Shown: positions 1 to 31,586 of the stretch, one piece after another
Numbering within the stretch: the stretch's first letter is position 1
How the letters are laid out: every line of letters starts with the position of its first letter
NCBI GenBank assembly: GCA_023480925.1
Contig: JAMCWY010000019.1
Span: 12,268-44,267 of the forward strand
Direction: 5' to 3'
From: Patescibacteria group bacterium
GTDB taxonomy: Bacteria > Patescibacteriota > Minisyncoccia > UBA6257 > HR35
Length of the DNA: 32,000 nt
Notes under the pieces: model-generated
The model's database searches: none
The model's input: only the letters and a program-made list of their open reading frames with translations
Told to the model about the DNA's origin: nothing
Position numbers and translations under genes: made by a program

Positions 1-2308
1 TTTTACCGATAAGTTTCTTTGGTTGGTTGACTCGTTTTAACAAGGGCAGATCTTTAACCGTTAAGGTTGAAATTTTGTCGTCAATAGCCAAAAGCTGATC
101 TTCTTTGGAAAGAACTTGACTAAATATAAGTTTACCAATTTTTTCACCCGGTTCAAAAACTTTTATACCAAGGCCGCCGCGACGTTGGAGTTTGATCTCG
201 TCTAAATCAATCTTTTTGACAAAGCCCTGATCGAAAACCAAAACCAGTTCTTTGTTGGTCCGAACGACTAAATCGAAAACTTCATCATCCTTTAATTTAA
301 TCATCTTAACGCCCGCGGCTGATCGCGTCTGACCGGTCAAATCGTCTTTAAAAGAAAGAGCGAAACCGGCTCGCGTCAGCAGAATTAAATCGCCTTGGTT
401 ATAAGTCGCGACCGCGGCAACCTCATCGTTCTTTTTTAACTTGATAATTTGCAAACCGGTTTTCTTTTGAGAGAGACAATCGGCGATGGCGATCTTCTTG
501 CCTAAACCGTTTTTCGTCGCTAAAAATAAAAATCTGTCTGACCGCTCGACTTTAAATGTTTTTAAGATCTGGTCGTTATGATTGAGACTGATTTCCGCTT
601 CAAGATACTTTTGGTTCTGATAAAAGTTATAAATTGGCACTTGGTAAATCCTACCCTTCTTCGTTAAAAGCCAAAGTTTTTCTGTTGTTCGAGCTAAAAT
701 AATCTGGCCAAAATTATCTTTTTCTTTGGTCAACTTTTCCACGGGCGTACCGATTGGAAAAGTTGAAACGTATTCCTTGGCGTCGATAAAAACAAGAACG
801 TCCTCGTCGGCGATCGATTCGGCTTCGGTTTCTTCTTCTAATTTTTCATTGACAATTTCGGTCCGACGCTCATCGCCGTATTTTGTTTTGATTTCTTCAA
901 TTTCTTTTTTTAAAACACCCTCGAGCTTTTTTCGGCTGGCCAAAATTTCTTCCAATTCTTTTTGAAGTTTTAATTTTTCTTTTAGCTCGGTTTCAATTTT
1001 TAGTTTTTCCAAATTGGTTAACGTCCGCAAGGGCATCTCTAAAATACTTTCGGCTTGCCGTTCGGATAAACTTAAATTCTTGATCAATTTCGATTTCGCC
1101 TCGTCTTTATCTTTTGAATTCCGAATTAACCGAATGACCAAATCAATTTTATCTAAGGCTTTTTTAAACCCCTCGAGGAGATGAATTCGATCTTTAACCT
1201 TTTCCAATTCGAATTTCGTCCGACGCGTGATCACTTCTTTCCGGTGATCGAGCCATTCCAACAAAATCGACTTCAAATCGTAAAGTTTCGGTTGAACGCC
1301 GTGTTCAAGCGCGACCAAGTTAATCGAAAAATTTTTTTGGAAATCGGTCAAACGGTAAAGTTTTTCCACCACGGCCGCGGCCTGATTTTCTCGCAACTCG
1401 ATCACGACCCGAACACCCTCCTTGTTCGACTCATCCCGAACATCTTTGATTTGAGGCAAAGTTTTAGCCAAAGAAAGTTCGGCAATTTGGCGAACCAACT
1501 CAGCCTTATTAACCTGATAGGGCAATTCAATCAGAACAACCCGCTCATCCCCGCGTTTGTTTTGTTCAATTTTATATCGACCCCGAATAACAATTCGACC
1601 GCGGCCGGTTTGATAAACTTCGGCCAAACGCTCGCGGTCGTAAATAATTCCGGCTGAAGGAAAATCCGGTCCTTGAATTAATTTCAAAATTTCTTTAAGC
1701 GAACCATTTTGATTGTCAACTAAAAAAGTCAGAGCCGAGCAAACTTCTTTTAAGTTATGAGGCGGAATGTTCGTCGTCATGCCAACGGCGATACCGAGGT
1801 TGCCGTTGACGATTAGATTGGGAATTTTCGCTGGCAGGACCTTTGGTTCCTTTTTAGTGTTATCGTAGTTGGGCATAAAATCAACCGTCTCTTTATCCAA
1901 CTCCGTAATCATCTCTTCGGCAATCTCGGTTAGACGCGCTTCGGTGTAGCGGTAAGCCGCGGCCGGATCGCCGTCAATCGAACCAAAATTGCCCTGGCCG
2001 TCAACGAGCGGGGAACGGAGAGAGAAATCTTGGGCTAAACGAACGAGAGTCTCATAAGTGGCCGCGTCGCCGTGGGGATGATACTTGCCTAAAACATCGC
2101 CGACGATCCGAGCGCACTTCATGTATTTGGCATTATGGTCCAGACCCAACTCTTTCATCACAAACAGAATTCGACGCTGGACCGGTTTGAGGCCGTCGCG
2201 AGCGTCGGGAATAGCCCGGCTGACAATAACGCTTAAAGCGTAATCAAGATAAGAAGTTTTTAATTCGTTTGTGATTTCCGATTGGATAATTTTTTCTTTC
2301 ATCGCCAT
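1..2308 (-). CDS. gyrA: DNA gyrase subunit A (C-terminus cut by window edge)
   Basis: It is absent from the ORF track because it runs off the window. Reverse-strand translation from the ATG at 2308 gives [49 protein letters not shown]...LGKYHPHGD...DGQGNFGS. An internal stretch reads [12 protein letters not shown]. The same frame is still open at position 2. Confidence 0.93.
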
Positions 2309-2379
2309 AAATTAAATAATCAAAATTTAATCTCGCTTCAAGTTTTAATCACGACCAAGACGTTACCACAATCGCTTCA

Positions 2380-2589
2380 TTAACGGCCGGAGCCGATACT
2401 TGAAACGATGTTAAAAATATTAGCCATTCCGCTCTTGAGGGCGTTGGCCGTGCCAACAACAATGACCTCAGCCGGTGATGGTTTGGGCGCCAGAAACGGC
2501 AACAAGTCACCGCCCTGAAACCACCAGAGAAAAACAATGATGGCAAAAAGGGCGAGACTGTAACGAAAGGCGGTATATTTGTTTTTCAT
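2380..2589 (-). CDS. small hypothetical membrane-anchored protein (69 aa)
   Basis: ORF with one hydrophobic N-terminal segment (LALFAIIVFLWWF). It sits 10 nt downstream of the preceding minus-strand gene. I recognised no family. Confidence 0.35.
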   Translation of the reverse strand: MKNKYTAFRYSLALFAIIVFLWWFQGGDLLPFLAPKPSPAEVIVVGTANALKSGMANIFNIVSSIGSGR

Positions 2590-2599
2590 TTTTTTTAAC

Positions 2600-3115
2600 T
2601 TAATGCATTAAATAAAATGCCGGCGCGATTTTTTTTGAATTAATTTTAACTTCATTTGTTTTTTCCCGTTTTAAATCCAAAGCCCTGCTTCTGTCGCTAA
2701 AGCCGATCCAAACAAGCGGCTTAAAGTACGATTTAATTTTACTGATCGAACCGGCCGATAGTTCCTTAAAAAGAACGACGTCGATTTTTTCAAACTCGAG
2801 ACTGATTTCTTTTAAAACCGCGTCGCTTATATCGGTCGGGCAATAAAGATAATTTAAACCCTCGTTGTCCCTGATGATGAAAAAAAGTTTTTTCGCTTCG
2901 GCTGATTTCAATTTGGATTGAAGAAAAGCTTGAAAATAAAAATTGCCCGCTTCGTACTGGCCGGTCAAGTTGAAAATCCTGCCATCGTTTATATTTCTTT
3001 CCCAGTCGGTCAGAATGTTCACGCCCGCTTCAACTCTGTTCGGATCGAGATAAACTTTGGCCGTCTTATCATAACTCAGGACAAATTTATTTTCGGGAGT
3101 TTTTTTAATTATCAT
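2600..3115 (-). CDS. hypothetical protein (171 aa from the ATG at 3115)
   Basis: The track ORF 2600..3154 starts at a TTG. A TGTTATAAT extended -10 (3138-3146, minus) lies inside that extension, so the ATG at 3115 is the more likely start. No recognisable motifs. Confidence 0.5.
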   Translation of the reverse strand: MIIKKTPENKFVLSYDKTAKVYLDPNRVEAGVNILTDWERNINDGRIFNLTGQYEAGNFYFQAFLQSKLKSAEAKKLFFIIRDNEGLNYLYCPTDISDAVLKEISLEFEKIDVVLFKELSAGSISKIKSYFKPLVWIGFSDRSRALDLKREKTNEVKINSKKIAPAFYLMH

Positions 3116-3302
3116 CTTGCCTTGATTGATTTTTAATATTATAACATAAATCAACTCTTGGTCGAATGAGACGAAACAGCCGTGGTCAAAACGGCTCGCC
3201 CGAACCGTTTATTGCCAGTTTAAGTTTGTTTCCAAAAAATAAATAAAAACAACGCGTCTTTCCGCGAACTGATTCAAATAGATTCGTTTACAATAGAAGT
3301 TA

Positions 3303-4010
3303 ATGGAGATAATTCCGATCAAGACAAGAATTTTCAAAGAAAGCGACGATTTGTTCGGTTTTCTCCGCGCCAATCTTCCGTTATTGAAATCGGGCGATAT
3401 CGTTGTCGTGACTTCAAAAATCGTGGCCCTGGCCCAAGGCCGAACCGTCCTATTTTCGCCTAAAGAAAAATATAAGTGGATAAAAAAAGAAAGCGACCAA
3501 ATTATTAAAACACCCTGGGCTTATCTGACTCTCAGAGAAAAACGTTGGTGCGTTAGCGCCGGTATCGATGAATCTAACGGCCGGGGCCGATTAATTTTTT
3601 TACCCAATGCCCCATTTAGCGTGGCCAAAAATCTTCAAAAGAAATTAAAAAAATTTTATGGCCTAAAAAAAATCGGCGTTCTGATCACGGACACTCGGAG
3701 CACGCCCTTGCGGGCGGGGGTGATCGGTTCAACTCTGGCCTACTTTGGTTTCTCGCCCATGAAAGACTACGTTGGTAAAAAAGATTTATTTGGCAGAAAG
3801 TTTAAATTTGTCAAAAGTAATATTGTTGATGCCTTAGCCGCGGCGGCGGGCGTAACGATGGGCGAAGGAGCGGAACGAAAACCAATTGCCGTTATCCGAA
3901 ATGCCAATGTTTATTTTACTCAAAAAAAACAATCTTTGGCAAAAGTTTTGATTAGACCCGAAAAAGATCTCTACCGATTTATTTACCGCCGAATTCGATC
4001 AACATCTTAA
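3303..4010 (+). CDS. CofE/FbiB-like gamma-glutamyl ligase family protein (F420-0:L-glutamate ligase fold)
   Basis: Motifs LKSGDIVVVTSKIVALAQGR, SAGIDESNG and VLITDTRSTPLRAGVIG are typical of the F420_ligase (CofE) family. Confidence 0.7.
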   Translation: MEIIPIKTRIFKESDDLFGFLRANLPLLKSGDIVVVTSKIVALAQGRTVLFSPKEKYKWIKKESDQIIKTPWAYLTLREKRWCVSAGIDESNGRGRLIFLPNAPFSVAKNLQKKLKKFYGLKKIGVLITDTRSTPLRAGVIGSTLAYFGFSPMKDYVGKKDLFGRKFKFVKSNIVDALAAAAGVTMGEGAERKPIAVIRNANVYFTQKKQSLAKVLIRPEKDLYRFIYRRIRSTS

Positions 4011-4065
4011 TCAGCCGTATTATTTTCGTCCAATCAATAAAATCCTATTTTAAAAAAGAAAAACA

Positions 4066-5061
4066 ATGAAACCGTGTTTCGTCAGCCCGTTGATCCAAAC
4101 AGTTGGCCGCGAGTTAGGAATTGAGGTCCGGTTGGAACCGAAGTATGGCTATGCCGGACAGTTAATTTTGCCGAACGGCCAAAAACGTTATTTCCGCAAC
4201 AATAGTTTCGATATCAATCTCCTGGGCGCTTCGGAAATTGCGAAAGACAAAATGTACGCGGCCTCCTTCCTCGCCAAGATGAACTACCCCGTCCCTGAAG
4301 GCGAAGAGTTTTTTTCCGACGCGTGGTGCGAAACTATCGCAAGTAAACGAGAGGCGCGAGCGGCCTATCGCTACGCCCAGTCAATTGGATTTCCCGTTAT
4401 AATTAAACCAAACAACAAAAGTCAAGGCGAAGGTGTTTTTAAAGTTGCGGGCAAAATTGATTTTTTCCGCTCGGTTGAAACAATCACTGCTTCCGACCGC
4501 GTCTTTTTAGTCCAACGGATAGTTGAAGGCGACGATTTTCGTTTCGTTGTTTTGGATCAAGAAGTTCTCGCCGCTTACCAAAGGATTCCACTTTCGGTCA
4601 CTGGCGATGGCCAATCTTCAATCCTGACACTATTGAAACAAAAACAAAAATCTTTTGATCGGTTAAAACGTTTTATTCGAATCTCGTTTGCCGACAATCG
4701 AATTACAAATCAGTTGAAACAATTAAAACTAACGCTCGATTCTATTTTGGGGATGGGTCAAATAATTCAGGTCCTGCCAATAGCCAATCTTTCTCTGGGC
4801 GGCGAGGCGATCGATCTGAGTGAAAAAATTCATCCCGATTGGAAACGTTTGGCTATTGAGATTACTCGGGCGATGGGACTACGTTTCTGCGGTTTAGACT
4901 TTATTATTCAAGGCAAAATTTGGGCTCAACCTTTTTCGTACGTGATTTTAGAATTAAATCCTTCACCCGGCCTTGAACACTTCGCCTCTTTGGGCAAAAA
5001 ACAGCGCGAGCGAGTTAAGATTATTTATCGAAAATTATTAGAAACGTTCTTGGAGAATTAA
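4066..5061 (+). CDS. ATP-grasp ligase (RimK / glutathione-synthetase / cyanophycin-synthetase-like)
   Basis: FPVIIKPNNKSQGEGVFKV and ILELNPSPGLEH resemble ATP-grasp nucleotide-binding and catalytic segments. It lies 55 nt downstream of the CofE-like gene. Confidence 0.65.
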   Translation: MKPCFVSPLIQTVGRELGIEVRLEPKYGYAGQLILPNGQKRYFRNNSFDINLLGASEIAKDKMYAASFLAKMNYPVPEGEEFFSDAWCETIASKREARAAYRYAQSIGFPVIIKPNNKSQGEGVFKVAGKIDFFRSVETITASDRVFLVQRIVEGDDFRFVVLDQEVLAAYQRIPLSVTGDGQSSILTLLKQKQKSFDRLKRFIRISFADNRITNQLKQLKLTLDSILGMGQIIQVLPIANLSLGGEAIDLSEKIHPDWKRLAIEITRAMGLRFCGLDFIIQGKIWAQPFSYVILELNPSPGLEHFASLGKKQRERVKIIYRKLLETFLEN

Positions 5062-5355
5062 GATAGGCTTTCGCCAACAGATTTATTTTTTGCCAATTTT
5101 TTTATTAACGATTTAAATTCACAACCGGGAAAGAATATATTTTTGGAAAACCGGCTTTCGCCACCCCTCATTATATGAATCGGAAAAATTCAAGTCAAAT
5201 TTTTGCCGCGTTGTCTTTGTCAATTTTCAGTTAAATATTTTCTAAATAAACCATATTAATGATAAAATGAAAAATCAAGCCAAAATAGAAAATTTCGACT
5301 CGAGCGCCAGCGCGAATTTTTTCGTTTCAGTTTAACCACCACCGTGGCGGAATTA

Positions 5356-5364
5356 TGTTATAAT
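5356..5364 (+). promoter_or_regulatory. extended -10 promoter TGTTATAAT, 8 nt before the S1 ATG (leaderless-type)
   Basis: TG at 5356-5357 and TATAAT at 5359-5364. The ATG is at 5373 and there is no Shine-Dalgarno sequence. Confidence 0.55.
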
Positions 5365-5372
5365 GTCAAATA

Positions 5373-6422
5373 ATGAATAGCATCATTAAAACTAGCCCGG
5401 AATTTAATTTAAATATATCCCGCGGCTTAAAAAAAATCACGATCGGATCGCTTATGAACGGTTTTGTTTTGGCGAAACGACCGAAAGAACTTTTAGTTGA
5501 CTTAAAAAATCTTGGTTTAGCCAGAATCTATGGTCAAGAATATAACCGGGCCAAAAGTCTCATTAACAAAATCAATCCGGGCGACGAAGTTATCGTTAAA
5601 ATCACAAAATTCGACGACGGCTACGGCAATTACGAAGGCTCCCTTCAAGACATTCAAGAAATCAACCAGTGGCAAAAAATCAAAAACTTTCTTAAAACCA
5701 AAAAAGTTCTTGAACTCAAAGTTATCGACGCGAACAAGGGCGGCTTGATCGTCGAAGTCGAAGGGGTTAAAGGTTTTGTTCCAGTTTCCCAGCTTTCGCC
5801 CGAACACTATCCCAGAATTTCAAACAACAACAAACAGGTGATTTTGAATCATTTAAAGAACTTCGTCGGTCAAAGTTTTCCTTTTCGGATTATTAACGCC
5901 GAACCAAGCAACCAAAAATTAATCTTATCCGAACGGTCGGCCTTGGAAGAAACTTCGGCTCAAGCGATCAACCAGTTTAACGTTGGTCAAATTGTCGACG
6001 TTAAAATTGTCGGCTTGGGCAAATTTGGCATCTTTGTCCGCTTTAACGACAACCCGCCCTTGGACGGCCTCGTCCACATCAGCGAGATACCGGAGAAAGA
6101 ACAGGAGTTGGAAACAAGGTTTGAAATCGGCAACAGTTTTAAGGCCAAAATCATCAAGATTGAAGGCGACCGGGCGAACTTCAGCCTAAAAGACTTAAAC
6201 GAAGATCCATGGTTAATATTTTCAAAAGATCACCAGGTCGGCTCAATCATCAAAGGCCGGGTCAGCCAAAAAACAAACGACATTTTCGCCACAGTTGACA
6301 TTGACAAGATCAAAGGCGCGATTTTTGAAAACCTGGACAAGATCAAAGAAAACGAAGATTACGAATTCAAAATCGAAGATTTAAACATTAAGGAAAAAAA
6401 ACTAATTTTAAAGTTGATTTAA
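5373..6422 (+). CDS. rpsA: S1 RNA-binding domain repeat protein (ribosomal protein S1-like)
   Basis: Repeated S1/OB modules, e.g. GGLIVEVEGVKGFVPVSQLS, GQIVDVKIVGLGKFGIFVRF...GLVHISEI and GSIIKGRVSQ. Confidence 0.75.
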   Translation: MNSIIKTSPEFNLNISRGLKKITIGSLMNGFVLAKRPKELLVDLKNLGLARIYGQEYNRAKSLINKINPGDEVIVKITKFDDGYGNYEGSLQDIQEINQWQKIKNFLKTKKVLELKVIDANKGGLIVEVEGVKGFVPVSQLSPEHYPRISNNNKQVILNHLKNFVGQSFPFRIINAEPSNQKLILSERSALEETSAQAINQFNVGQIVDVKIVGLGKFGIFVRFNDNPPLDGLVHISEIPEKEQELETRFEIGNSFKAKIIKIEGDRANFSLKDLNEDPWLIFSKDHQVGSIIKGRVSQKTNDIFATVDIDKIKGAIFENLDKIKENEDYEFKIEDLNIKEKKLILKLI

Positions 6423-6474
6423 GTTTAATTTAGCCCGGCCTGATTAAAATTGATCTAAGATTTAAAAATTTTTT

Positions 6475-8325
6475 ATGAAAAAAGGTTTATTATATATAAC
6501 CGTAACCGTTTTAATTATTGTCATCGTCGGCTTGGTTTTTACTTCGCTCAAAAATCACTTGGTTCAAAATGTTTCAATTTATGATGTCGTTAATTTAATC
6601 AAGACCGGCCAAGTTAAAAAAGTCTATGTCAGCTCAAACCAAATCCTGGTCCAACTAACCAACAACAGTCTTGTCAGCGCCGCCAAGGAGAGCCAAGTTT
6701 CTTTCTGGCAAATCGTCAAAGACTCAAAAATTCCTTCGACTCAGTTGGAAAATATCAAAATTCAAATTCAAGACACAAGCTATAGCGCTTTAATTCTTGG
6801 TTTTCTTTTTAATGTTTTGCCCTTTATCGTCATCGGCTGGCTCTTTTGGCGATTTTTTGTCCAAGCTCAAAAAGGCGCGGGCCAAATTTTTTCTTTTTCC
6901 AAATCTGGCGTCCGGATTTATAATCCCCAAAAAGATCGCATCACCTTTAAAGACATCGCCGGTTTAGTTGAAGCAAAAGAAGAGGTTCAAGAAATTATCG
7001 AATTCTTGAAAAACCAAGACCGTTTCGTCCGGCTTGGCGCTCAAATACCCAAAGGCGTCTTGCTTGTTGGCCCGCCCGGCAGCGGTAAAACTTTATTGGC
7101 CCGGGCGGTCGCTTGCGAAAGCAACGTTCCCTTTCTTCATATCTCCGGCTCGGAATTCGTCGAGATGTTCGTCGGCGTTGGCGCCGGCCGAGTCCGCGAC
7201 ACGTTCGCAATGGCGAAAAAATTAGCGCCGTCGATTCTTTTCGTTGACGAACTCGATGCCGTTGGCCGAGCCCGCGGCGTTGGTTTAGGCGGCACTCACG
7301 AAGAACGCGAGCAAACCTTAAACCAAATCTTGGTTGAGATGGACGGTTTGGAAAAAAATTCCGGCGTGATCGTTCTTTCTGCCACCAACCGACCAGACGT
7401 GCTTGATCAAGCTTTGCTCCGACCGGGCCGATTTGACCGAAAAATCGTTCTCGACCTGCCCGACATCAAAGGCCGAGAGGATATCTTAACAATCCATCTG
7501 CGCGATAAAAAAATCGGCAAAATTAATCTGCGCCAAGTGGCCGAGCGCACGCCCGGCTTTACCGGCGCCGATCTGGCCAATCTCGCCAACGAAGCAGCGA
7601 TCTTGGCCGCGCGAAAAAATAAAACCGAAATTGATCAAATTGAACTTTTGGAATCAATCGAAAAAGTTATTCTTGGGCCGGAACGCAAATCAAAAGTTTT
7701 TTCCAAAAAAGAAAAAGAGCTGGCGGCTTACCATGAATCCGGCCACGCCATTGTCGCTCATTATCTCGTCGGAGCCGCCCCCGTCCAAAAAATTTCAATT
7801 ATCAGCCGAGGCCAGGCGGGTGGCTATACAATCAAAGCGCCGTTCGAAGAAAAAAATTTCCACTTTAAAAAGGAATTTTTTGACGAACTGGCGGTTATGC
7901 TTGGTGGTTACGCCGCTGAACTAACTCAGTTCAACGATATTTCAACTGGGGCCGCGAGCGACCTTCAAATCGCGACCGATCTGACCCACCAACTTATCAC
8001 TCGCTACGGCATGTCCGAAACATTCGGACCGATGGCTTTGGGCAAAATCCAAGAACTTAATTATTTAAGCCGAGACGCGATCGTTGAAAAAGATTACTCG
8101 GAAAAAAGCGCTGAGCTAATCGACCTGGAAACGAAGCAAATTTTAGACAACGCCCTGAACCAAGCTAAAAATGTTATTCAAAATAAAATCGATAAATTTA
8201 AAAAACTCGCTTCGTATTTGATTAAAAAAGAAACGATCGAAAAAAAACAATTTGAAAAGTTAATCGGCGACAAAAAAGGTTCTTTTTCGACCGAGCCAAC
8301 GCTCGCGCCGAGACCAAACGTTTAA
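6475..8325 (+). CDS. ftsH: ATP-dependent zinc metalloprotease FtsH
   Basis: N-terminal TM segments, Walker [12 protein letters not shown]+ core ([19 protein letters not shown]) and the zinc site HESGHA. Confidence 0.96.
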
Positions 8326-24679: not shown

Positions 24680-26089
24680 TTAATCGTTTAACTCGCCGCT
24701 GTTTTCAACCCGATTGACTTCCTCGACTCGGGCTTTAAATTCGCCTTTATAAATTTTCGCTTTAATCTGATCGCCCGAGACGACTTGATCAATGTCTTTA
24801 ACGACCGCGCCAATCTGATTAATTATAATACTATAACCCAGTTTTAAATTACGACTCGGATTAAAACCGGCCAAGCGCGATCGGCTCAACTCCAACTCTT
24901 TGGTCAAGCGGTTGATTAATTTTTCAAATAAAATCGGCAGACGCGAACCGAACTCTTCGACCGCCTTTTCTTTTTTCGCCCGCATCGATTCAAACTGCCT
25001 GAGATTAAGAATAAATTGGTTGAAAACGTTTTTTGAGCGAAAACTAATTTGGTTTAACTGATTTAAAAGTCGAACGTTTGCCTGATCAAACTCGGCCTGG
25101 CTTGTCTGCAAACCAAACTCAAAAAGATGAGTAATGTTGGTTTCAAATCGGGGTAAGACTTCAATTAAATTTCGCCAAGAATCGTTTATGGCGATCGCGG
25201 CCGCGGTTGGCGTTGACGGAGCCAAGTCGGCAACCAAGTTGGCAATTGGCAGATCGCGCTCGTGGCCGATCCCAGCGATGGTCGGTATCTTTGAGCCAAA
25301 AATCGATCGGCAAACCAGTTCATGATTAAACGGCTGAAGATCTTCAAGACTGCCGCCGCCGCGAATTATAACCAAAACATTCAAACCCGGGCTGGTTTGA
25401 TTAAACCAATCGATCGCTTTAATAATATTGTCAACCGCTTGCCGGCCCTCAACCCGAACATCACGGAAAAAAATTTTATAACCGCGCCGGTCCAAGTTGC
25501 GGCGAAAATCATCGATAACCGCGCCGGTCTTCGACGTGATTAAACCAATCGTTTGGATAAACTCGGGCAGTGGCCGTTTCCGTTCGAACAAACCCTCAAG
25601 TTCCAGTTTTCGCTTAAGTAGATCATAAGCTTTTTTTAAGGCGCCCTCGCCGACCAATTCCAAACCTTCGACCAAAAAACTCAGCCGGCCCTTGGCTTTA
25701 TAAATCTCGGCCCGACCGCTTACCTTAATCGCCATGCCTTCAGCTAAGGTCAAACCAAGACTGCGATAAAGACCGGGGCGGATATAGCAGTTTAAAACCG
25801 CCGTTTCTTTTTGGTCCTTTAAAGCGAAATAAACGCCGGTTTGATGATGATTAAGTTCGGTAATCTCGCCCAATATAGAAACAATTTGAATCGCCAAAAC
25901 TTCGTTAAGTTGGTCGATAAAATCAGCGACGCCAAACAGACGCTCGGTTGAAATCGAAGATTCGGCCGAATCGAAACCGGCCAATCTTTTTTTCTTCTCG
26001 TCGTCGCTCAAAACCAACTTAAGGCGGCTTGATTGAAATAAATCACTCTCGGCGCCGCTATTTTTTCTTCGATTGATTCGCTTAGCCAT
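24680..26089 (-). CDS. xseA: exodeoxyribonuclease VII large subunit
   Basis: N-terminal OB fold (ILGEITELNHHQTGVYFALKD), then the catalytic region (IGLITSKTGAVIDDF...IIRGGGSLEDL...GIGHERD). Confidence 0.88.
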   Translation of the reverse strand: MAKRINRRKNSGAESDLFQSSRLKLVLSDDEKKKRLAGFDSAESSISTERLFGVADFIDQLNEVLAIQIVSILGEITELNHHQTGVYFALKDQKETAVLNCYIRPGLYRSLGLTLAEGMAIKVSGRAEIYKAKGRLSFLVEGLELVGEGALKKAYDLLKRKLELEGLFERKRPLPEFIQTIGLITSKTGAVIDDFRRNLDRRGYKIFFRDVRVEGRQAVDNIIKAIDWFNQTSPGLNVLVIIRGGGSLEDLQPFNHELVCRSIFGSKIPTIAGIGHERDLPIANLVADLAPSTPTAAAIAINDSWRNLIEVLPRFETNITHLFEFGLQTSQAEFDQANVRLLNQLNQISFRSKNVFNQFILNLRQFESMRAKKEKAVEEFGSRLPILFEKLINRLTKELELSRSRLAGFNPSRNLKLGYSIIINQIGAVVKDIDQVVSGDQIKAKIYKGEFKARVEEVNRVENSGELND

Positions 26090-26774
26090 TGGCTTCTTCC
26101 GGTTCAGATTGGCCTAATCGACTAAATAACTCGATCATCTCTTCTTTCGAATAAATATCGAAGTCGCGCAGCTCACCCAAATAATTTTGTTCATAAGTTT
26201 TTAAGTACTGGTTGACGTAATCCACGATCGCGTCGGTTCGGCTAAAATTTTTCTTAAAAAGATCGAAACCATATTGAAGCTCAAGCAGATGCGCCTGGCG
26301 AATGGCGAAAAGCCAAGCTGAACGTTCCGCCAATAAAACTTCTTCGTATTCTTTTTTAATCGCTTTTAACCTTGACTCCGGATAAATATTAGCCTTGTCC
26401 AATGCTCTCGATTTCTGATTAGCTTTTATCGCCGACCAGATGAATTCCGTCTCAGTCGAATCAACAACATGACCAATTTCGTGAAGGAGGTTGAACAAAT
26501 CCTTAATCTCGTCAAATCGCCCGACCAAAACTTCCGGTTTTTGACCATGATGATTAGGCATAACCGCTGACCAATCATTCTTCCGACTTAACCTAAATTT
26601 CGTTCCGGCCGGTACAAACCAGTTAAAATCGAGAACGATCAGATTATCCTTTTTGAAACCGATAAACAAATCGTCATTTTCTTTTCTTTTAATCGTCAAC
26701 TTTAAACCCTGACCCAACTCGATTGATTTTTCTTTTTTCAACCAACCCAATCCCTCTTTTAATTGATTGAACAT
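26082..26774 (-). CDS. hypothetical HExxH (HEIGH) putative metallopeptidase-like protein
   Basis: LLHEIGHVVD motif. The start is moved to the ATG at 26774 because TTGGCG-N17-TATAAT (the -10 at 26782-26787, minus) sits 7 nt upstream of it. The 3' end overlaps the xseA start by 8 nt. Confidence 0.55.
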   Translation of the reverse strand: MFNQLKEGLGWLKKEKSIELGQGLKLTIKRKENDDLFIGFKKDNLIVLDFNWFVPAGTKFRLSRKNDWSAVMPNHHGQKPEVLVGRFDEIKDLFNLLHEIGHVVDSTETEFIWSAIKANQKSRALDKANIYPESRLKAIKKEYEEVLLAERSAWLFAIRQAHLLELQYGFDLFKKNFSRTDAIVDYVNQYLKTYEQNYLGELRDFDIYSKEEMIELFSRLGQSEPEEANG

Positions 26775-26883
26775 TACTAATATTATAAAACTAGAAATAA
26801 AAACTCGCCAACTCGACAATCAGAACAGTTGATTTAAAACAACCATGAAAATAACTCGACCAAAAAGCAACGAGAGAACGAAT

Positions 26884-27438
26884 TTAACTCAAACCCAAAA
26901 CCTCGTTGATTGAAATCATCGCGTCAAGGGCGAGTTGAATCAGTTCGTTTAACCCCAACTTCAAATACTCTTCCGACTTCAAAATAATATTTCGGTCAAC
27001 GCCGGCAGCAAACGATTTTTCCTTGAACTTTTTTAAAACCGAGTCAACGGTCACGTCCTTTAATTTTTTTGAGGGCTGAACCAAAGCGCAAGCGACGATC
27101 AAACCGGTAATCTCTTCGGTCGAGTAAAGCGCTTTTTCCAAAAGCGATTCCGGTTCAAAACCGTGAATGTGATTGTGAACTTTGACCGCCTGAATGATCT
27201 CTTTGGGGAAACCTTCCTTTTCCAAAACCGCCGCCGCGATTAAACTATGTTCTTCCGGCGTCTCTTTTGTTTCTTCCCAATCAAGATCGTGAACTAAACC
27301 GGCCAGGCCCCAAATTTCTTCGTCTTGGTTAAATTTTCTGGCTAAAGCCCGCATCAACGCCTCAACCGCGAAAAGATGCTTTTTTAAATTCTCGTTTTGA
27401 ATATGTTCGTCCAAAAGACACAAGGCTTTTTCCCGCAT
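26884..27438 (-). CDS. HD-domain phosphohydrolase
   Basis: H...HD motif (LAGLVHDLDW) plus downstream His residues (VKVHNHIH). Confidence 0.75.
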   Translation of the reverse strand: MREKALCLLDEHIQNENLKKHLFAVEALMRALARKFNQDEEIWGLAGLVHDLDWEETKETPEEHSLIAAAVLEKEGFPKEIIQAVKVHNHIHGFEPESLLEKALYSTEEITGLIVACALVQPSKKLKDVTVDSVLKKFKEKSFAAGVDRNIILKSEEYLKLGLNELIQLALDAMISINEVLGLS

Positions 27439-27483: not shown

Positions 27484-27552
27484 ACAAACATAAGTAATTA
27501 TTATAAATGATTCCGTTGAAGTTTAAATGAAAAATAAAATCAACGGGAAAAT

Positions 27553-27626
27553 TGCGGGGTCGTCTAATGGTAGGACCGTGGACTCTGGATCCATGTATCT
27601 AGGTTCGAATCCTAGCCCCGCAGCCA
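27553..27626 (+). tRNA. tRNA-Gln (anticodon CUG), CCA encoded
   Basis: I folded it by hand. The acceptor is TGCGGGG/CCCCGCA (U1-A72) with discriminator G73 and CCA. The D stem is GTCT/GGAC. The anticodon stem is GTGGA/TCCAT with loop CT-CTG-GA. The T arm is CTAGG-TTCGAAT-CCTAG. Total length is 74 nt. Confidence 0.93.
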
Positions 27627-27637
27627 AATTTGACGCA

Positions 27638-27839
27638 ACAAACTTTTGACATTATTTTGCCGAATTTAATCCACAAATCTAAGAAACGAGACCTTACCTG
27701 ATAGTTGCCCGCCGCCTGCGGCGGCGGGTAGGAAAACCCGTCGGCTCTCGCGGGCAAAAATTTTTCCCCTCAAACTCCCCCAATTTTTGGCCGCGAGACA
27801 ACCACAAAAGATTTACAAAATCAGTGAGATAGTGTATAA
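27638..27839. repeat. left copy of the 202-bp inverted repeat (IR-L)
   Basis: It matches the reverse complement of 30423-30624 at 194/202 positions with no gaps (hand alignment). Confidence 0.95.
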
Positions 27840-27840
27840 A
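27812..27840 (+). promoter_or_regulatory. inward-facing promoter TTTACA-N17-TATAAA at the inner end of IR-L
   Basis: -35 at 27812-27817, -10 at 27835-27840, and an exact 17-nt spacer. Confidence 0.6.
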
Positions 27841-27845
27841 GTTAA

Positions 27846-28238
27846 TCAGTACATTCAAATTCCAAACGAAAAGAGAAGAGGTGTAACTGTGTTTATTTAT
27901 ATCGGTGGCGTACCCGGGAACAGATGCTTACGATAACGCTCATTGTCGCGACCCCCATACCATCTGCGTCGCCGTCTCAAAGACGCGGACGATCGGCATG
28001 ACCGTAAGCGTAATATTGATTTTCTGATTCACGAACAGAAAATAGAAGTCAATATTGCCGTTTCTCAAGCCGCAGAACTCGGCATTCCTCTTTGCTGCGT
28101 GAGTAATAAGGGTGGCGAGAATCCGATAGCTTCGGAAGTACTTTTCTCTTTCTGTGTCCACCAAGCGCTATGCCGCAAAATACTGCGGCGCATCTTTCCC
28201 TGACCCACCGTACATTTCCCTACGGTGGGTTTTTATTT
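27846..28238 (+). ncRNA. candidate structured non-coding transcript (~390 nt), family unknown
   Basis: It is bounded by the IR-L promoter and a strong intrinsic terminator, and it is locally GC-enriched. It contains several helices, including 27926-27932/28003-28009, a 15-bp bulged hairpin at 28012-28056, and 28172-28189. The only ORFs are TTG-initiated, lack an RBS and mutually overlap. Confidence 0.45.
28203..28238 (+). terminator. rho-independent terminator (plus-strand orientation)
   Basis: ACCCACCGTA (28203-28212), an 8-nt loop, then TACGGTGGGT (28221-28230), followed by TTTTTATTT. On the minus strand no T-run follows the stem. Confidence 0.8.
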
Positions 28239-28781
28239 GAATACGCAATTTTCTTTAGTAATACCGTGGTTTTTTTTATAATCTTCCCATAGACCAAGGT
28301 ATGCCCTGGTAATCCTTGGCCGATCTAAAAGATTAAATTCGTTGAGATACCGATCTATTGTTTTCGGTTCACCCTCAAACTCAACAAAAAAACCGAAAGG
28401 TAATTTGTCAAATGAGATAGCAATATCATTTTTGAAAACATTTTTTCGTTTTTTCTCAAAAATAATTTCTTTGCTAAAACCCAAAGACCTCAATATCTCC
28501 CTCAAATTTTCAATATTTTCACCCTCTTTCATTTTTATCTCCAGTTCTTCTCGCTCAAAAAACTGGGCGTTTTCTCTTGTTTTTCTTTTCACAGTTAAAA
28601 TAATCTCTTTTTTCTCTCCTTCTACATATTTAATTCTTGGGAAAATGCCATCTTTGATGTTTGAAAAATCCTCTTTGAAATAGCCAAAGGTTCTTTCCAG
28701 GTGGAAATTATCAAAACCATCGGTAAAACGGCTAAATTCTTCAGGCGTTAATTCAATTTTTACTTCTATTTCTTTTTTCAT
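28233..28781 (-). CDS. CYTH-domain protein (triphosphate tunnel metalloenzyme; CyaB/ThTPase-like)
   Basis: N-terminal ExExK motif (EIEVKIE), plus further acidic strand motifs (REELEIK, FVEFEGE). It is 182 aa. It overlaps the upstream gene by 29 nt. Confidence 0.7.
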   Translation of the reverse strand: MKKEIEVKIELTPEEFSRFTDGFDNFHLERTFGYFKEDFSNIKDGIFPRIKYVEGEKKEIILTVKRKTRENAQFFEREELEIKMKEGENIENLREILRSLGFSKEIIFEKKRKNVFKNDIAISFDKLPFGFFVEFEGEPKTIDRYLNEFNLLDRPRITRAYLGLWEDYKKNHGITKENCVFK

Positions 28782-29664
28782 ATTTTTCTTCTTTTTCGTG
28801 GTCGTAATACGTTGGATATTTTTCAGACATTGGGAATCTGTATTTTGTTTGGTCTTTCACTCCCGCTTCTTTATATCCCCTCCGTCGGTCCCAACAAGTG
28901 GGACAATCGCCGCATTCGATATCAAATGATTTAACACAGGTTCTTGCTTTGTGCAGGGGTATTCCGTTTTCGAAAGACCATTTTATAAAAACATCTTTAT
29001 CAAAATAATTTCCAAACTCCGTTTCTATGGGGAGTGATATAAACTGCCAAGACCAATCGTTCAGTATTTGACAAAATAATATGTTCATTAACCTAACCCA
29101 AGTTTGAGAACAGTGATAGGAAAAATCCGAACTCATATTAGAGGCGAATACTGTTTTTGTTTCAACCCCCAGTGCTTTTAAAGAATAGCCGTACTCCATT
29201 CCGGTTAAAAATACTATTGGTCCTCTTGCCGGATAAGATATGTTATGACTTAACGGAATATCATCCATTATTCTTTTTGTTTTTCTCAATAAATCCTTGT
29301 ATTCCATCCCCGGCGTCATAATAGTTATCTCTTTATAATTGTGATAAAGTTTTGGGAATTTTCTCTTGTAAAATCGGTCAAAATAATCTACTGACTTCTT
29401 CTCATATTTGTAGTTTGACTGGCCCCTGTTTATGAAAAATGGATAAACATTCAAACTAAATTCTTTTAACAGTATTTCTATATTGGCAACGGAATCTTGG
29501 CCGCCAGACAAACAAGCAACAACGCTATCACCCCCTTTTGGCATTTTAACAACATACCCTCTTTTACTTTTCAGGATACCATCATATATCTTGAGTAGAG
29601 TAATATCCTCATTCTCTTTATTTTCGAATTTTACTTCTCCTTGTTTATTCAGTATTTTGGTCAT
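28753..29664 (-). CDS. QueC-like PP-loop ATPase (7-cyano-7-deazaguanine synthase family)
   Basis: PP-loop ACLSGGQDS and a C-terminal Cys cluster C-x7-C-x2-C-x2-C (CVKSFDIECGDCPTC), followed by RRRGYKEAGVKDQTKY, as in QueC. It has a roughly 45-aa N-terminal extension. Confidence 0.72.
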   Translation of the reverse strand: MTKILNKQGEVKFENKENEDITLLKIYDGILKSKRGYVVKMPKGGDSVVACLSGGQDSVANIEILLKEFSLNVYPFFINRGQSNYKYEKKSVDYFDRFYKRKFPKLYHNYKEITIMTPGMEYKDLLRKTKRIMDDIPLSHNISYPARGPIVFLTGMEYGYSLKALGVETKTVFASNMSSDFSYHCSQTWVRLMNILFCQILNDWSWQFISLPIETEFGNYFDKDVFIKWSFENGIPLHKARTCVKSFDIECGDCPTCWDRRRGYKEAGVKDQTKYRFPMSEKYPTYYDHEKEEKYEKRNRSKN

Positions 29665-30388
29665 AGTGCTTGTATGATTTGATTATTTCTTTTGCTTCCC
29701 CAACGGTTTCTTGATAAATATGTGCATCAGTTATAAAACCATCCAATGGCCCAACCCAAACATTGGTGTTCAATTTTTCTTTTAATCGTTCTACTACTTC
29801 CTTGGACAAAAGAGAGATTGCGACAAAATTTCCTCCAGCTTTTTGATACGCATCTATCGATCTTGCGTTAAATAATGTATTCATGTGATACCCCCTTTCC
29901 CCATTCATTTTAATAAGTCGGAATTGGACAGTTGTAATGCAGGGCAAATAATCATCTTTGGGCCTATCCAAAACTCTTTGATAATCCTCGTGTCTTATAA
30001 AACTCATAATTGCTTTTTTGGATTCTGGAATTTCGGCTAATCTCGCAACCACAAAATCTAACATTCCCCAATCTTTTATTCTTGCATAATAACTTTTACT
30101 ACCGGGACTAAACGAAGGCACGACATCAAAATCGTGCATTATATCCTTGGTGAATGTGAGTTCTATTATCTGGTCTATGTTTTTTTTATCCCCATACTTT
30201 TCAATAAGAACATCGGGGAGAGATTGCGTTGCTGATTTCATACGGATATTCTGCAGACTAACTCTTTTTCTCCCATCATCTTCAGTGAGCACTCCATTTT
30301 TAATAATCGCTTCAACTAAGCTCAACCAGACGCTTCCTATTGTTTCACCGAAAATGTTATAACCGAATGGTTCTAGTTTGACATACAT
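29645..30388 (-). CDS. thymidylate synthase (ThyA) fold enzyme, archaeal-like short form
   Basis: It carries LPCITTVQF (catalytic Cys with Q at +5), ARSID followed by N at D+8 (GGNFVAISLL), and TDAHIY (D-x-H-x-Y). These match the ThyA active-site layout. Confidence 0.72.
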   Translation of the reverse strand: MYVKLEPFGYNIFGETIGSVWLSLVEAIIKNGVLTEDDGRKRVSLQNIRMKSATQSLPDVLIEKYGDKKNIDQIIELTFTKDIMHDFDVVPSFSPGSKSYYARIKDWGMLDFVVARLAEIPESKKAIMSFIRHEDYQRVLDRPKDDYLPCITTVQFRLIKMNGERGYHMNTLFNARSIDAYQKAGGNFVAISLLSKEVVERLKEKLNTNVWVGPLDGFITDAHIYQETVGEAKEIIKSYKHYDQNTE

Positions 30389-30421
30389 AAGTTTAAATTA
30401 TTCACAAAAACGATGGTTTAA

Positions 30422-30450
30422 ATTATACACTATCTCACTGATTTTGTAAA
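30422..30450 (-). promoter_or_regulatory. inward-facing promoter TTTACA-N17-TATAAT at the inner end of IR-R, driving the ThyA-like/QueC-like/CYTH operon
   Basis: On the minus strand the -35 is at 30445-30450 and the -10 at 30422-30427, with a 17-nt spacer. The ATG at 30388 implies a leader of about 27 nt with no Shine-Dalgarno sequence. Confidence 0.65.
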
Positions 30451-30624
30451 TCTTTTGTGTTTATCTCGCGGCCAAAAATTGGGGGAGTTTGAGGGGGAAA
30501 ATTTTTGCCCGCGAGAGCCGACGGGTTTTCCTACCCGCCGCCGCAGGCGGCGGGCAACTATCAGGTAAGGTTTCGTTTCTTAGATTTGTGGATTAGGTTT
30601 GGTAAAATAATGTCAAAAGTTTGT
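30423..30624. repeat. right copy of the 202-bp inverted repeat (IR-R)
   Basis: Reverse complement of IR-L, with 8 substitutions and no indels. Confidence 0.95.
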
Positions 30625-30625
30625 G

Positions 30626-30647
30626 GGTGTTCTAATTCCGCAGCCAA
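30626..30647 (+). repeat. degenerate copy of the tRNA-Gln T-arm/3' acceptor end (putative att remnant)
   Basis: GGTGTTCTAATTCCGCAGCCAA compares with the tRNA's AGGTTCGAATCC[TAGCC]CCGCAGCCAA. The exact 10-mer CCGCAGCCAA occurs at 27618-27627 and 30638-30647 in the same orientation. Confidence 0.5.
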
Positions 30648-30907
30648 GCTGTAAAGTTTCTGTTTCCCGCCCGAGCGAAAATTATCAAAAGTCAGTGTCC
30701 GGATTTCCTTTGAAAAAAGTTCGGATTTTGTTCAGGAAGGACAGCCAATTTAGTTTGTAAAGTTTGGTGTGTTTGTTAGAGAAATACCAAAAAAAGTCAA
30801 ATTCCTGCCCATGATCAGTACAAATTGCGGTTGCGGCCAAGACGTACTGCTGTCACGATACGTTAAAAAAGAGACCGCAGTCAAACGGAAAAACTTAAAA
30901 TAATATT

Positions 30908-30916
30908 TGTTATAAT
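30908..30916 (+). promoter_or_regulatory. extended -10 promoter TGTTATAAT for tmk
   Basis: TG at 30908-30909 and TATAAT at 30911-30916. The leader carries AAGGAGG (30938-30944) 9 nt before the ATG. Confidence 0.5.
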
Positions 30917-30953
30917 ATTATTGGCATTTTATTATTTAAGGAGGAAAGAAAAA

Positions 30954-31586
30954 ATGGGTTTATTCATCGTGTTTGAAGGAGTCGACGGTTCAGGCAAGAC
31001 GCAGCAGAGCCGACTACTGAGCGACCATCTCAAAAGAAAGGGGTATAAGGTTCTTTTAACCAAAGAACCGGGCGGCGACGATTCAATCTCTTATATGATC
31101 AGATTGATCTTGCTTAACCCCGACCATAAAAACAAAATAGCGACCAAAACCGAGCTGATGCTTTTCGAAGCTGACCGAGCTCAGCATATTGATCGTACCA
31201 TCATGCCTGCTCTTAGAAACGACGAGATCGTCATATCCGACCGGTTTGACGCCGCCACTTACGCTTATCAAGTTTACGCGAGAAATGTTTGTTCCGCTGA
31301 AGAATTCTTTCACTTGAATGAATTCGTAACAAACGCTTTGTCGCCGGATTTTACTTTCTGGCTCGATTTGGACCCAACTATCGGCTTAAAACGCAACGCT
31401 AACGCCGGGAAAAAAGATCGATTCGAACTCGAAGGGATTGAATTCCACCGAAACGTTCGAGAAGGATATATAGAATATTTTCAAAATATCCCGGAGGAAA
31501 AGTACGCCAAGATCACCACCAATCGGCCGATTAAAAAAATCCACGAAGAAATTCTTCAGATTTTGGATAAAAAATTCAAAATCTAA
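30954..31586 (+). CDS. tmk: thymidylate kinase
   Basis: MGLFIVFEGVDGSGKTQQ P-loop, LTKEPGG, and a DRF/D-R motif region. The start is set at the ATG behind a strong SD rather than the track's upstream TTG. Confidence 0.88.
   Translation: MGLFIVFEGVDGSGKTQQSRLLSDHLKRKGYKVLLTKEPGGDDSISYMIRLILLNPDHKNKIATKTELMLFEADRAQHIDRTIMPALRNDEIVISDRFDAATYAYQVYARNVCSAEEFFHLNEFVTNALSPDFTFWLDLDPTIGLKRNANAGKKDRFELEGIEFHRNVREGYIEYFQNIPEEKYAKITTNRPIKKIHEEILQILDKKFKI

Follow-up and report, generated by a model that had tools for sequence, protein, structure and literature searches.

The stretch of DNA analysed here (the window) comprises 32,000 nucleotides (nt), positions 12,268 to 44,267 of contig JAMCWY010000019.1 from a Patescibacteria group bacterium (assembly GCA_023480925.1). 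It contains an operon of three genes encoding a protein of the thymidylate synthase (ThyA) fold, a PP-loop ATPase resembling QueC and a triphosphate tunnel metalloenzyme of the CYTH family. The source genome of the window, designated G000, is a 507-kb assembly that is 94% complete and whose relatives belong to the Patescibacteria, part of the candidate phyla radiation (CPR). This trio was found to be the core of a four- to five-gene horizontally moving cassette that lands in unrelated places. The features of the operon are as follows.

29645-30388, minus strand: ThyA-like gene, 247 amino acids, first gene of the operon
28753-29664, minus strand: QueC-like PP-loop ATPase gene, 303 amino acids
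28233-28781, minus strand: CYTH / triphosphate tunnel metalloenzyme gene, 182 amino acids
30422-30450, minus strand: sigma-70-type promoter TTTACA-17-TATAAT, matching 11 of 12 consensus positions, about 30 nt 5' of the ThyA-like ATG
28202-28231, no strand assigned: GC-rich hairpin with an 11-pair stem followed by a T-run, just 3' of the CYTH stop codon

A first-pass annotation of this DNA, made from the sequence alone, had described three overlapping minus-strand open reading frames (ORFs) under one near-consensus promoter, and both points were confirmed. The ThyA-like and QueC-like frames share 20 nt (29645-29664) and the QueC-like and CYTH frames 29 nt (28753-28781); the promoter is the top promoter-like site within 27500-31000 and is retained 5' of the ThyA-like gene in the close relatives L011, L013, L015 and L030. 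The GC content of the cassette is 34.8% as against 41.2% for the genome, which places it among the lowest 1.3% of segments of equal length, and its neighbours are housekeeping genes (exonuclease VII, an HD protein, tRNA-Gln, tmk, PEP synthase and enolase). The trio had also been noted as one without a described pathway or defence system. The literature agrees with this, in that no published description of the trio or of the ThyA-like/QueC-like pair was found, and a 2026 survey of PF06508 makes no mention of a clade linked to thymidylate synthase.

Conservation, variants and mobility of the cassette

The ThyA-like/QueC-like/CYTH trio recurs in dozens of independent loci and is a conserved unit, not a coincidence. 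Profile searches were made of the ORFs at 36 loci with a homologue of the QueC-like protein. In 33 of these the ThyA-like gene is located immediately 5' of the QueC-like gene and overlaps it; of the other three, one lies at a contig end (L022) and in two the QueC-like match is truncated at its 5' end (L016 and L027). The third slot holds a CYTH gene in 25 of the 36 loci. When two more ThyA-like homologues were picked at random, the ThyA-like, QueC-like and CYTH genes again stood in a row, in one case in the company of rpoC, dnaG and rpoD and in the other among large surface proteins. The suspicion that the trio might never co-occur elsewhere, and so be coincidental, can thus be laid aside.

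The remaining variation consists largely of exchanges between analogous parts. A Ham1-type nucleoside triphosphate (NTP) pyrophosphatase is encoded in place of the CYTH protein in L024, L028, L034, L036 and L040, and a Ham1-type domain is fused to the QueC-like protein in L008, P0077 and P0084. The gene set of the cassette further includes a small P-loop nucleoside monophosphate (NMP) kinase of either AAA_17 or Tmk type. Intact AAA_17-type kinase genes are present in 14 other loci, L012, L016, L022 and L030 included, and a Tmk-type kinase is encoded inside the operon in L004-L007, L019-L023 and L029. Two kinase-related features were recognized in the window.

27889-28203, plus strand: remnant (pseudogene) of the AAA_17-type P-loop NMP kinase gene of the cassette, convergent with the operon, recognized by tblastn with the L012 orthologue
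30921-31586, plus strand: tmk (thymidylate kinase; PF02223, E 7.6e-44), divergent from the operon

The remnant, which the first-pass annotation had overlooked, clusters with the intact AAA_17-type kinases and aligns to residues 3-12 and 121-202 of the intact 203-residue L012 orthologue with 78% identity (tblastn). An in-frame internal deletion of about 108 residues (approximately residues 13-120) has removed the P-loop core, and a premature stop follows the sequence GGVPG. The hairpin at 28202-28231, located between the convergent CYTH gene and this remnant, is likely to be a bidirectional terminator. The first-pass annotation had named tmk as the kinase of the pathway. This gene is the sole PF02223 match in G000. 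The cassette's own kinase is a different gene, now a pseudogene in the window, for which the adjacent tmk may stand in.

When 1.84 billion representative proteins were searched with the profile, 211 QueC-like clusters were found at E < 1e-30, the nearest of which are still tied to pyrimidine-nucleotide enzymes. In L049 and L050 the QueC-like gene is accompanied by a divergent ThyA-like gene (hhalign probability 99.9%), and in L048 and L132 a dCTP-deaminase-like gene occupies the ThyA-like slot, the order in L048 being AAA_17 kinase, dCTP-deaminase-like, QueC-like and Ham1. L135 additionally encodes a nucleoside diphosphate kinase (NDK). A larger relative of the cassette, with ten genes on the same strand, was found at approximately 768-7911 of a Collierbacteria contig (L132-L134) in the order Ham1, QueC-like, aminotransferase, ThyA-like, AAA_17 kinase, dCTP-deaminase-like, QueC-like, Ham1, NDT-like and PfkB. 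The ThyA-like protein of this cluster carries Asp at the base-reading position, and the cluster probably uses cytosine chemistry.

The cassette is rare, and its distribution is patchy. Among 301 sampled Patescibacteria genomes the QueC-like gene occurs in three, and the cassette copies of G305, G314, G318 and G328 carry in-frame stops, as expected of an accessory trait. When metagenomes were scanned with P0245, distant canonical QueC genes (around 27% identity) were all that was recovered.

A link to phages was provided by L043, a viral contig of 41.8 kb from IMG/VR, on which the same overlapping trio is located between genes for an exonuclease, NinB, YopX and a DNA methyltransferase. Genes for GroEL and an M23 peptidase are near by. 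Cultured phages gave no match to the ThyA-like protein; to the QueC-like protein they gave a single one (23% identity), an ordinary QueC encoded by Streptococcus phage Dp-1. Scanning viral sequences with the ThyA-like alignment returned no match, the pattern step having missed the ThyA-like gene of L043.

In 11 loci, about seven of them independent (L004-L007, L011, L015, L021, L024, L029, L034 and L038), a sensor histidine kinase with a HisKA_7TM domain (around 530 amino acids) was also observed to be encoded no more than a few kb from the cassette; this association may be due to chance or be regulatory.

Predicted activities of the encoded enzymes

The family assignments of the first-pass annotation (a ThyA fold, an orphan QueC-like PP-loop protein and a CYTH protein) are supported by Pfam, and its view that each protein acts on nucleotides while none is an ordinary ThyA or QueC is supported as well; the equivalog scores for ThyA and QueC are far below their cut-offs. 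AlphaFold models of the ThyA-like and QueC-like proteins, built on family alignments, confirmed both folds with confidence (pLDDT) values of 92.8 and 92.3, respectively. A complex prediction for the two proteins scored 0.00 and was taken neither for nor against an interaction.

The ThyA-like protein matches PF00303 with E 3.2e-7 (30.2 bits against a cut-off of 24.3), and falls far short of the NCBIfam equivalogs NF002495 (27 bits against 327) and TIGR03283 (38 against 175). The residues C150, R176, S177, D179, N187, H223 and Y225 are invariant in the family alignment and are the equivalents of C146, R166, S167, D169, N177, H207 and Y209 of the Escherichia coli enzyme, and K124/K125 occupy the position of its basic pair R126/R127. 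The catalytic cysteine and the residues by which canonical ThyA binds deoxyuridine monophosphate (dUMP) are therefore all in place, and the enzyme is predicted to bind dUMP. The diagnostic positions of the ThyA family were taken from PMC13326640, according to which Asn at the N177 position reads uracil; the present family has Asn187 there. Tyr is found at the L143 position, a bulky residue as in methyl-forming enzymes.

The folate side of the active site is different. In the sequence alignment, the residues W80, W83, L172, G173 and F176, with which ThyA contacts folate, correspond to H/Y85, D88, Q182, K183 and G186, invariant polar or charged positions, and this replacement leaves the second substrate uncertain. 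Canonical ThyA (EC 2.1.1.45) was consequently rejected as an identity, on the grounds of the replaced folate contacts and the equivalog scores. The closest structural match of the model by VIA Z score is AfhB of phage HY126 (21.6), followed by MilA (19.6) and by ThyA at around 17. Despite this best match, a flavin-dependent 5-hydroxy-dCMP synthase of the AfhB / RB69 gp48 type was also rejected, since the signature of that group is N177D with D169N (PMC13326640) and the ThyA-like protein has Asn187 and Asp179. Position 2 of the protein is occupied by a bulky residue, Tyr, Trp or Phe.

The QueC-like protein matches PF06508 with E 4e-9 (36.7 bits against a cut-off of 22) and the PADLOC QueC model at 5.6e-14, and scores well below both the QueC equivalog TIGR00364 (17.4 bits against 150.3) and the QatC family NF041925 (17.2 against 280). 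Its fold resembles QueC (3bl5/2pg3) and Cap9, with weaker matches to TtuA and GMP synthase, and among solved sequences Cap9 (9nto) comes nearest to the family profile (E 6.4e-10). The loop S53-G-G-x-D57-S and the zinc-binding cysteines C243, C251, C254 and C257 are invariant; the spacing of the zinc motif, C-x7-C-x2-C-x2-C-x-D, is that of Cap9. By the motif definitions of PMC13329287, the segment R80-G-Q82-x5-E88 places Arg at the site of the aromatic residue (Tyr/Phe) that is essential in QueC and Cap9, and Y-H-C replaces the YPDC of QueC. The Arg would fit a phosphate-bearing substrate.

The nucleotide-linked clade retains SGGxDS, G-Q-x5-E, P-x-R-N and the four zinc-binding cysteines, and in a cross-clade alignment the full set of R-G-Q, P-x-R-N and His184 is kept consistently by the nucleotide-linked clades alone. 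Remoter QueC-like clades are PqqD fusions or lie beside ABC exporters or sugar genes. As a dCTP-deaminase-like enzyme can fill the ThyA-like slot, the QueC-like enzyme would seem, by analogy with GMP synthase and the tRNA thiolases, to act on the uracil nucleotide itself, at a ring carbonyl, and not on the C5 group. QueC in the strict sense (preQ0 synthase) was rejected as an identity, given the absence of the essential Tyr of YxQxHxxE and of YPDC, the TIGR00364 score and the lack of queD in carriers. Cys198 was likewise rejected as a universal persulfide carrier, being Ala in P0394.

A C-terminal PqqD domain, associated with peptide recognition in the biosynthesis of ribosomally synthesised and post-translationally modified peptides (RiPPs), was observed on QueC-like proteins of around 410-465 amino acids (P0278, P0279, P0289, P0350, P0366 and P0388) and in L046, where the fused gene adjoins an ORF of 38 amino acids and a methyltransferase gene. 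They appear to form a branch of the QueC family that modifies peptides and has not been described.

The CYTH protein falls narrowly short of the Pfam cut-off: it matches PF01928 with E 1.7e-4 and 21.9 bits, 1.3 bits under the cut-off of 23.2. The assignment is backed by TIGR00318 (NCBIfam, E 3.6e-5), by the match to the solved tunnel metalloenzyme Saci_0718 (E 5.5e-5), by the N-terminal E-x-E-x-K motif, present as E-I-E-V-K at residues 4-8, and by orthologues that do pass the Pfam cut-off (for example 1.1e-9 in L043). The protein is predicted to be a hydrolase of (deoxy)nucleoside triphosphates, (d)NTPs, or of triphosphate.

Carrier genomes, the proposed pathway and its alternatives

The carrier set consisted of 30 other genomes together with G000. 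Among the 30, canonical ThyA (E < 1e-50) is encoded in 18 and ThyX in 7, one or the other thus being present in 25, and three more encode a protein of around 470-540 amino acids with a ThyA-like domain. The background in the 301 Patescibacteria is 123 genomes with ThyX and 145 with PF00303, the latter mostly canonical ThyA and including one unpublished genome, G154, which enters into no other result given here. Carriers therefore keep the normal thymidylate pathway at about the background rate, which means that the cassette replaces neither thymidylate synthase, dUTPase nor CTP synthase. Three such roles had been considered and were rejected: the ThyA-like protein as a replacement for ThyX, in view of these counts; the CYTH protein as the missing dUTPase, the dut/dcd family being present in 21 of the 31 carriers; and the QueC-like protein as a substitute for CTP synthase, PyrG being encoded in 28 of the 31, G000 included. 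QueD (PF01242) was found in none of the 31, in a search of which queE and folE were not part, leaving the QueC-like enzyme without a deazaguanine supply, as 7-carboxy-7-deazaguanine is not made. The first-pass annotation had allowed that the proteins might turn out to be ordinary ThyA and QueC with a housekeeping CYTH and queD elsewhere in the genome. The absence of queD and the separate canonical thymidylate synthase of most carriers do not bear this out, and the cassette is an add-on to the normal dTTP pathway, with neither an ordinary ThyA nor an ordinary QueC.

G000 departs from this pattern. It encodes SHMT, TGT, PyrG and a single Tmk. In this 94% complete genome no ThyX, other ThyA, thymidine kinase, member of the dUTPase/dCTP-deaminase family, DHFR or QueD was found.

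As a side observation, reading frames of around 470-600 amino acids in the Patescibacteria G016, G076, G288, G100, G303, G310 and G311 align with the ThyA profile over positions 90-230 alone (E 1e-13 to 1e-22), and may represent a separate fused ThyA-domain family in CPR bacteria.

The reading that is preferred here, with a probability of roughly 0.55, is that this accessory mobile cassette is a pathway to a non-canonical pyrimidine deoxynucleotide of the free pool, following the logic known from phages T4, SPO1 and RB69, to which an ATP-dependent step of a QueC-family enzyme has been added. The pyrophosphatase, CYTH here and Ham1 elsewhere, would supply the monophosphate or clear a competing triphosphate. 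Cys150 of the ThyA-fold enzyme would then attack C6 of dUMP, and a one-carbon or other group would be placed on C5. Using ATP, the QueC/Cap9-like PP-loop enzyme would adenylate a carbonyl or carboxyl oxygen of the nucleotide, to be exchanged for nitrogen (as an amide or amine) or possibly sulfur. Finally, a dedicated small NMP kinase would phosphorylate the product back towards the triphosphate, which a polymerase could then use; in the window this kinase has been lost and tmk lies next door. Observation covers the gene set with its conservation and its exchanges of analogous parts, the add-on status and the conserved active-site residues; how the steps are ordered, what chemistry each modifying enzyme performs and whether the product ends up in DNA are inferred.

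Pathways of this kind are familiar from phages. T4 encodes the dCMP hydroxymethylase gp42, the deoxynucleoside monophosphate (dNMP) kinase gp1 and the dCTPase gp56, and SPO1 a dUMP hydroxymethylase. Phages RB69 and HY126 encode a 5-hydroxy-dCMP synthase and a dNMP kinase (PMC13326640). The cassette resembles these in that a ThyA-fold enzyme with a catalytic cysteine, a dedicated dNMP kinase and an NTP pyrophosphatase are encoded together, as was found across the loci (with the kinase a pseudogene in the window), and in that free nucleotides would be the substrate. It differs in its obligatory QueC-like PP-loop enzyme, none of which was found described for such pathways, in having a pyrophosphatase of CYTH or Ham1 and not of MazG or dUTPase type, and in its carriers, which are mostly CPR chromosomes. 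Unlike the flavin hydroxylases of RB69 type, the ThyA-like protein reads uracil through Asn and is without D169N; the folate contacts of ThyA are also missing.

The added enzyme can likewise be compared with several known systems. With QueC it shares SGGxDS, the Q...E motif, P-x-R-N, the C-terminal zinc-binding Cys4 and the overall fold, but it has Arg for the essential Tyr35 and about 100 extra residues, its carriers lack queD and it is always partnered with a pyrimidine-nucleotide enzyme. With Cap9 and QatC it has in common a gene located beside that of a partner enzyme and, with Cap9, the zinc-motif spacing; no CD-NTase, Cap10 or QatA/B/D is encoded near the cassette in the loci listed, the deazaguanine donor is absent, and the adjacent genes encode enzymes of nucleotides. 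GMP synthase and the tRNA thiolases MnmA and TtuA are PP-loop enzymes that adenylate a nucleobase carbonyl, which is then attacked by nitrogen or sulfur. Such ATP activation of a ring oxygen is what is proposed for the uracil nucleotide in the cassette, although these enzymes are remote kin with XMP or tRNA as substrates, and the cassette encodes no sulfur carrier or glutaminase partner. The MilA/MilB type of enzymes, which start nucleoside-antibiotic pathways, offers a further parallel, with MilA as the second-best structural match and with larger CPR relatives of the cassette that encode an NDT-like protein (PF05014) and a ThyA-like protein with a base-reading Asp; the ThyA-like protein of the window, however, has Asn (uracil), and the cassette has kinases in place of an N-glycosidase gene.

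The first-pass annotation had advanced both a modified-pyrimidine pathway of T4/SPO1 type and an anti-phage module. The former has become the better supported of the two through the exchanges in the pyrophosphatase and kinase slots, the NDK of L135 and the viral contig L043. Several observations nonetheless weigh against it. The trio is present on just one viral contig and in no cultured phage. The C5 donor of the ThyA-like enzyme is uncertain, and one-carbon transfer itself may not occur. No modified base is known for any carrier. Retained dTTP synthesis would mean a mixed nucleotide pool, the benefit of which is not evident. Cap9, the solved sequence nearest to the QueC-like profile, modifies a protein, and the next clades in the profile search include the PqqD-fused forms, which resemble peptide-modifying enzymes. 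In G000, moreover, the ThyA-like enzyme may have to supply thymidine nucleotides or a stand-in, because no other thymidylate synthase, thymidine kinase or dUTPase was found there.

As regards the anti-phage module, membership of the two systems known to contain QueC-like proteins was rejected. For type IV CBASS, neither a CD-NTase nor a TGT-like Cap10 family was seen among the neighbours in the loci listed or in the window; for QatABCD, the NF041925 score is far too low and no PF07693 or PF01026 was present among the neighbours listed. A new kind of defence, which upon infection makes a toxic or chain-terminating pyrimidine analogue or drains dUMP/dTTP in the manner of viperins or dCTP deaminase defences, is conceivable although improbable. 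Its patchy occurrence in around 1% of sampled genomes, low GC, varied contexts and several copies eroded or interrupted by stops would fit a defence system, the product is evidently not needed for growth in carriers that keep the normal pathway, HEPN/nucleotidyltransferase genes adjoin some loci, and both the affinity to the defence protein Cap9 and the PADLOC match of the QueC-like protein point the same way. The ThyA-like and CYTH proteins, however, have no PADLOC match; no sensor, effector, CD-NTase, Cap10 or QatA/B/D gene was present in the loci listed; the near-consensus promoter suggests constitutive expression; and the position of the trio within a viral replication and recombination block in L043 fits a function in favour of phage DNA better. 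If the cassette did serve defence, it would be a new nucleotide-based one. Cap9 and QatC also suggest that the QueC-like protein could be a protein or peptide ligase that modifies the ThyA-like or another protein and so switches its activity. The known QueC-like ligases are encoded beside their protein substrate, the zinc-motif spacing is of Cap9 type and the next clades carry PqqD peptide-recognition domains. Against this, the known donor is not made in carriers without queD, the upstream partner can be a dCTP-deaminase-like protein, so that there is no single conserved protein target, residue 2 of the ThyA-like protein is Tyr, Trp or Phe, whereas QatB, the Qat substrate, is reported to have an N-terminal glycine, and the nucleotide-linked clade keeps small-molecule catalytic motifs that are lost in most of the aligned relatives without a nucleotide link, PqqD-fused forms included. 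It is rated the least probable of the explanations weighed here.

Two further explanations keep the nucleotide chemistry and change its purpose. The cassette could be a canonical salvage route, with the ThyA-like protein as a minimal true thymidylate synthase, the QueC-like protein as a U-to-C (or similar) aminase and the CYTH protein as a dUTPase stand-in feeding dUMP. The gaps in thymidylate metabolism of G000, whose only tmk stands next door, would be accounted for, the uracil-reading Asn and the bulky residue at the L143 position would fit, and NDK, PfkB and NDT-like genes accompany relatives of the cassette. In most carriers, however, these roles are already filled by ThyA or ThyX, at near the phylum background, by dut/dcd and by PyrG, and the NCBIfam equivalog scores are far under their cut-offs, so that this explanation is considered very unlikely. 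Equally little credence is given to a nucleoside or pyrimidine natural product, made in the manner of MilA/MilB or bacimethrin and not as a nucleic-acid building block. The ThyA-like model is indeed nearer to the CMP hydroxymethylase MilA than to ThyA, and the larger relatives add NDT-like (PF05014), PfkB kinase, aminotransferase, glycosyltransferase and pyridoxal-phosphate-dependent decarboxylase genes. The cassette of the window and most relatives, on the other hand, are without N-glycosidase, transporter or tailoring genes, the NMP kinases and in one case NDK would push the product back to the triphosphate, and in L043 the trio is located among phage replication genes.

The free-pool pathway thus remains the preferred reading. 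A more specific form of it, which is put forward tentatively and is doubtful at present, is that some CPR bacteria and their phages place an undescribed pyrimidine deoxynucleotide into DNA, a 5-substituted uracil in which a ring or side-chain oxygen has been exchanged for nitrogen or sulfur by the QueC-family enzyme. If this specific form is true, a pyrimidine nucleotide would for the first time be known as the substrate of a QueC-family enzyme, and the cassette would be the first nucleotide-pool pathway of DNA hypermodification carried by cells and not by phages alone. Should the product be a new base of DNA or RNA, natural nucleic-acid chemistry would be widened, the QueC family would gain a substrate class and base-replacement pathways known from phages would be circulating in very small CPR genomes. 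A ThyA fold with an altered cofactor pocket and an ATP-dependent pyrimidine amidoligase or thiolase are also possible tools for making modified nucleotides. As the cassette is small and intact versions exist, it is open to direct testing whichever reading holds.

Flanking repeat and neighbouring genes

The whole cassette is bracketed by an inverted repeat of 211 nt, which the first-pass annotation had likewise overlooked, and is flanked by a tRNA gene.

27553-27626, plus strand: tRNA-Gln(CTG), flanking the cassette
27638-27848, plus strand: left arm of the inverted repeat, 5' of the kinase remnant and just after tRNA-Gln, with the same promoter and GC hairpins as the right arm
30414-30624, minus strand: right arm of the inverted repeat, 5' of the ThyA-like gene, holding the operon promoter; fold z-score -4.6

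The arms are 94% complementary (blastn: 96% identity over 202 nt), and each is located 5' of one of the two convergent units. Partial copies were found elsewhere in G000, at C6:164-248 after another tRNA and at C16:5450-5511, which suggests that this structured repeat of about 200 nt recurs as an intergenic element trailing tRNA genes and is not a riboswitch. An Rfam scan of the window at gathering thresholds recovered only tRNA-Gln, and a permissive scan of 30300-31000 gave chance-level matches only, with no known riboswitch upstream of the operon. Around the cassette the repeat may belong to a tRNA-trailing family, be a scar of insertion or serve as a regulatory region that is shared. The tRNA-Gln(CTG) may mark the site of insertion; in L030 and L019, too, the cassette is directly adjoined by a tRNA gene.

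The locus is present in DNA runs of a mine-tailings study and, with small shares, in groundwater runs, in the form of short-read metagenome contigs only; no RNA runs carrying it are listed. Two neighbouring frames on the minus strand are not conserved beside the cassette elsewhere. One, at 26082-26819 of the window, encodes 245 amino acids with no family match. The other, at 26884-27438, encodes an HD-domain phosphohydrolase of 184 amino acids, the size of which fits the YfbR-like dNMP nucleotidases.

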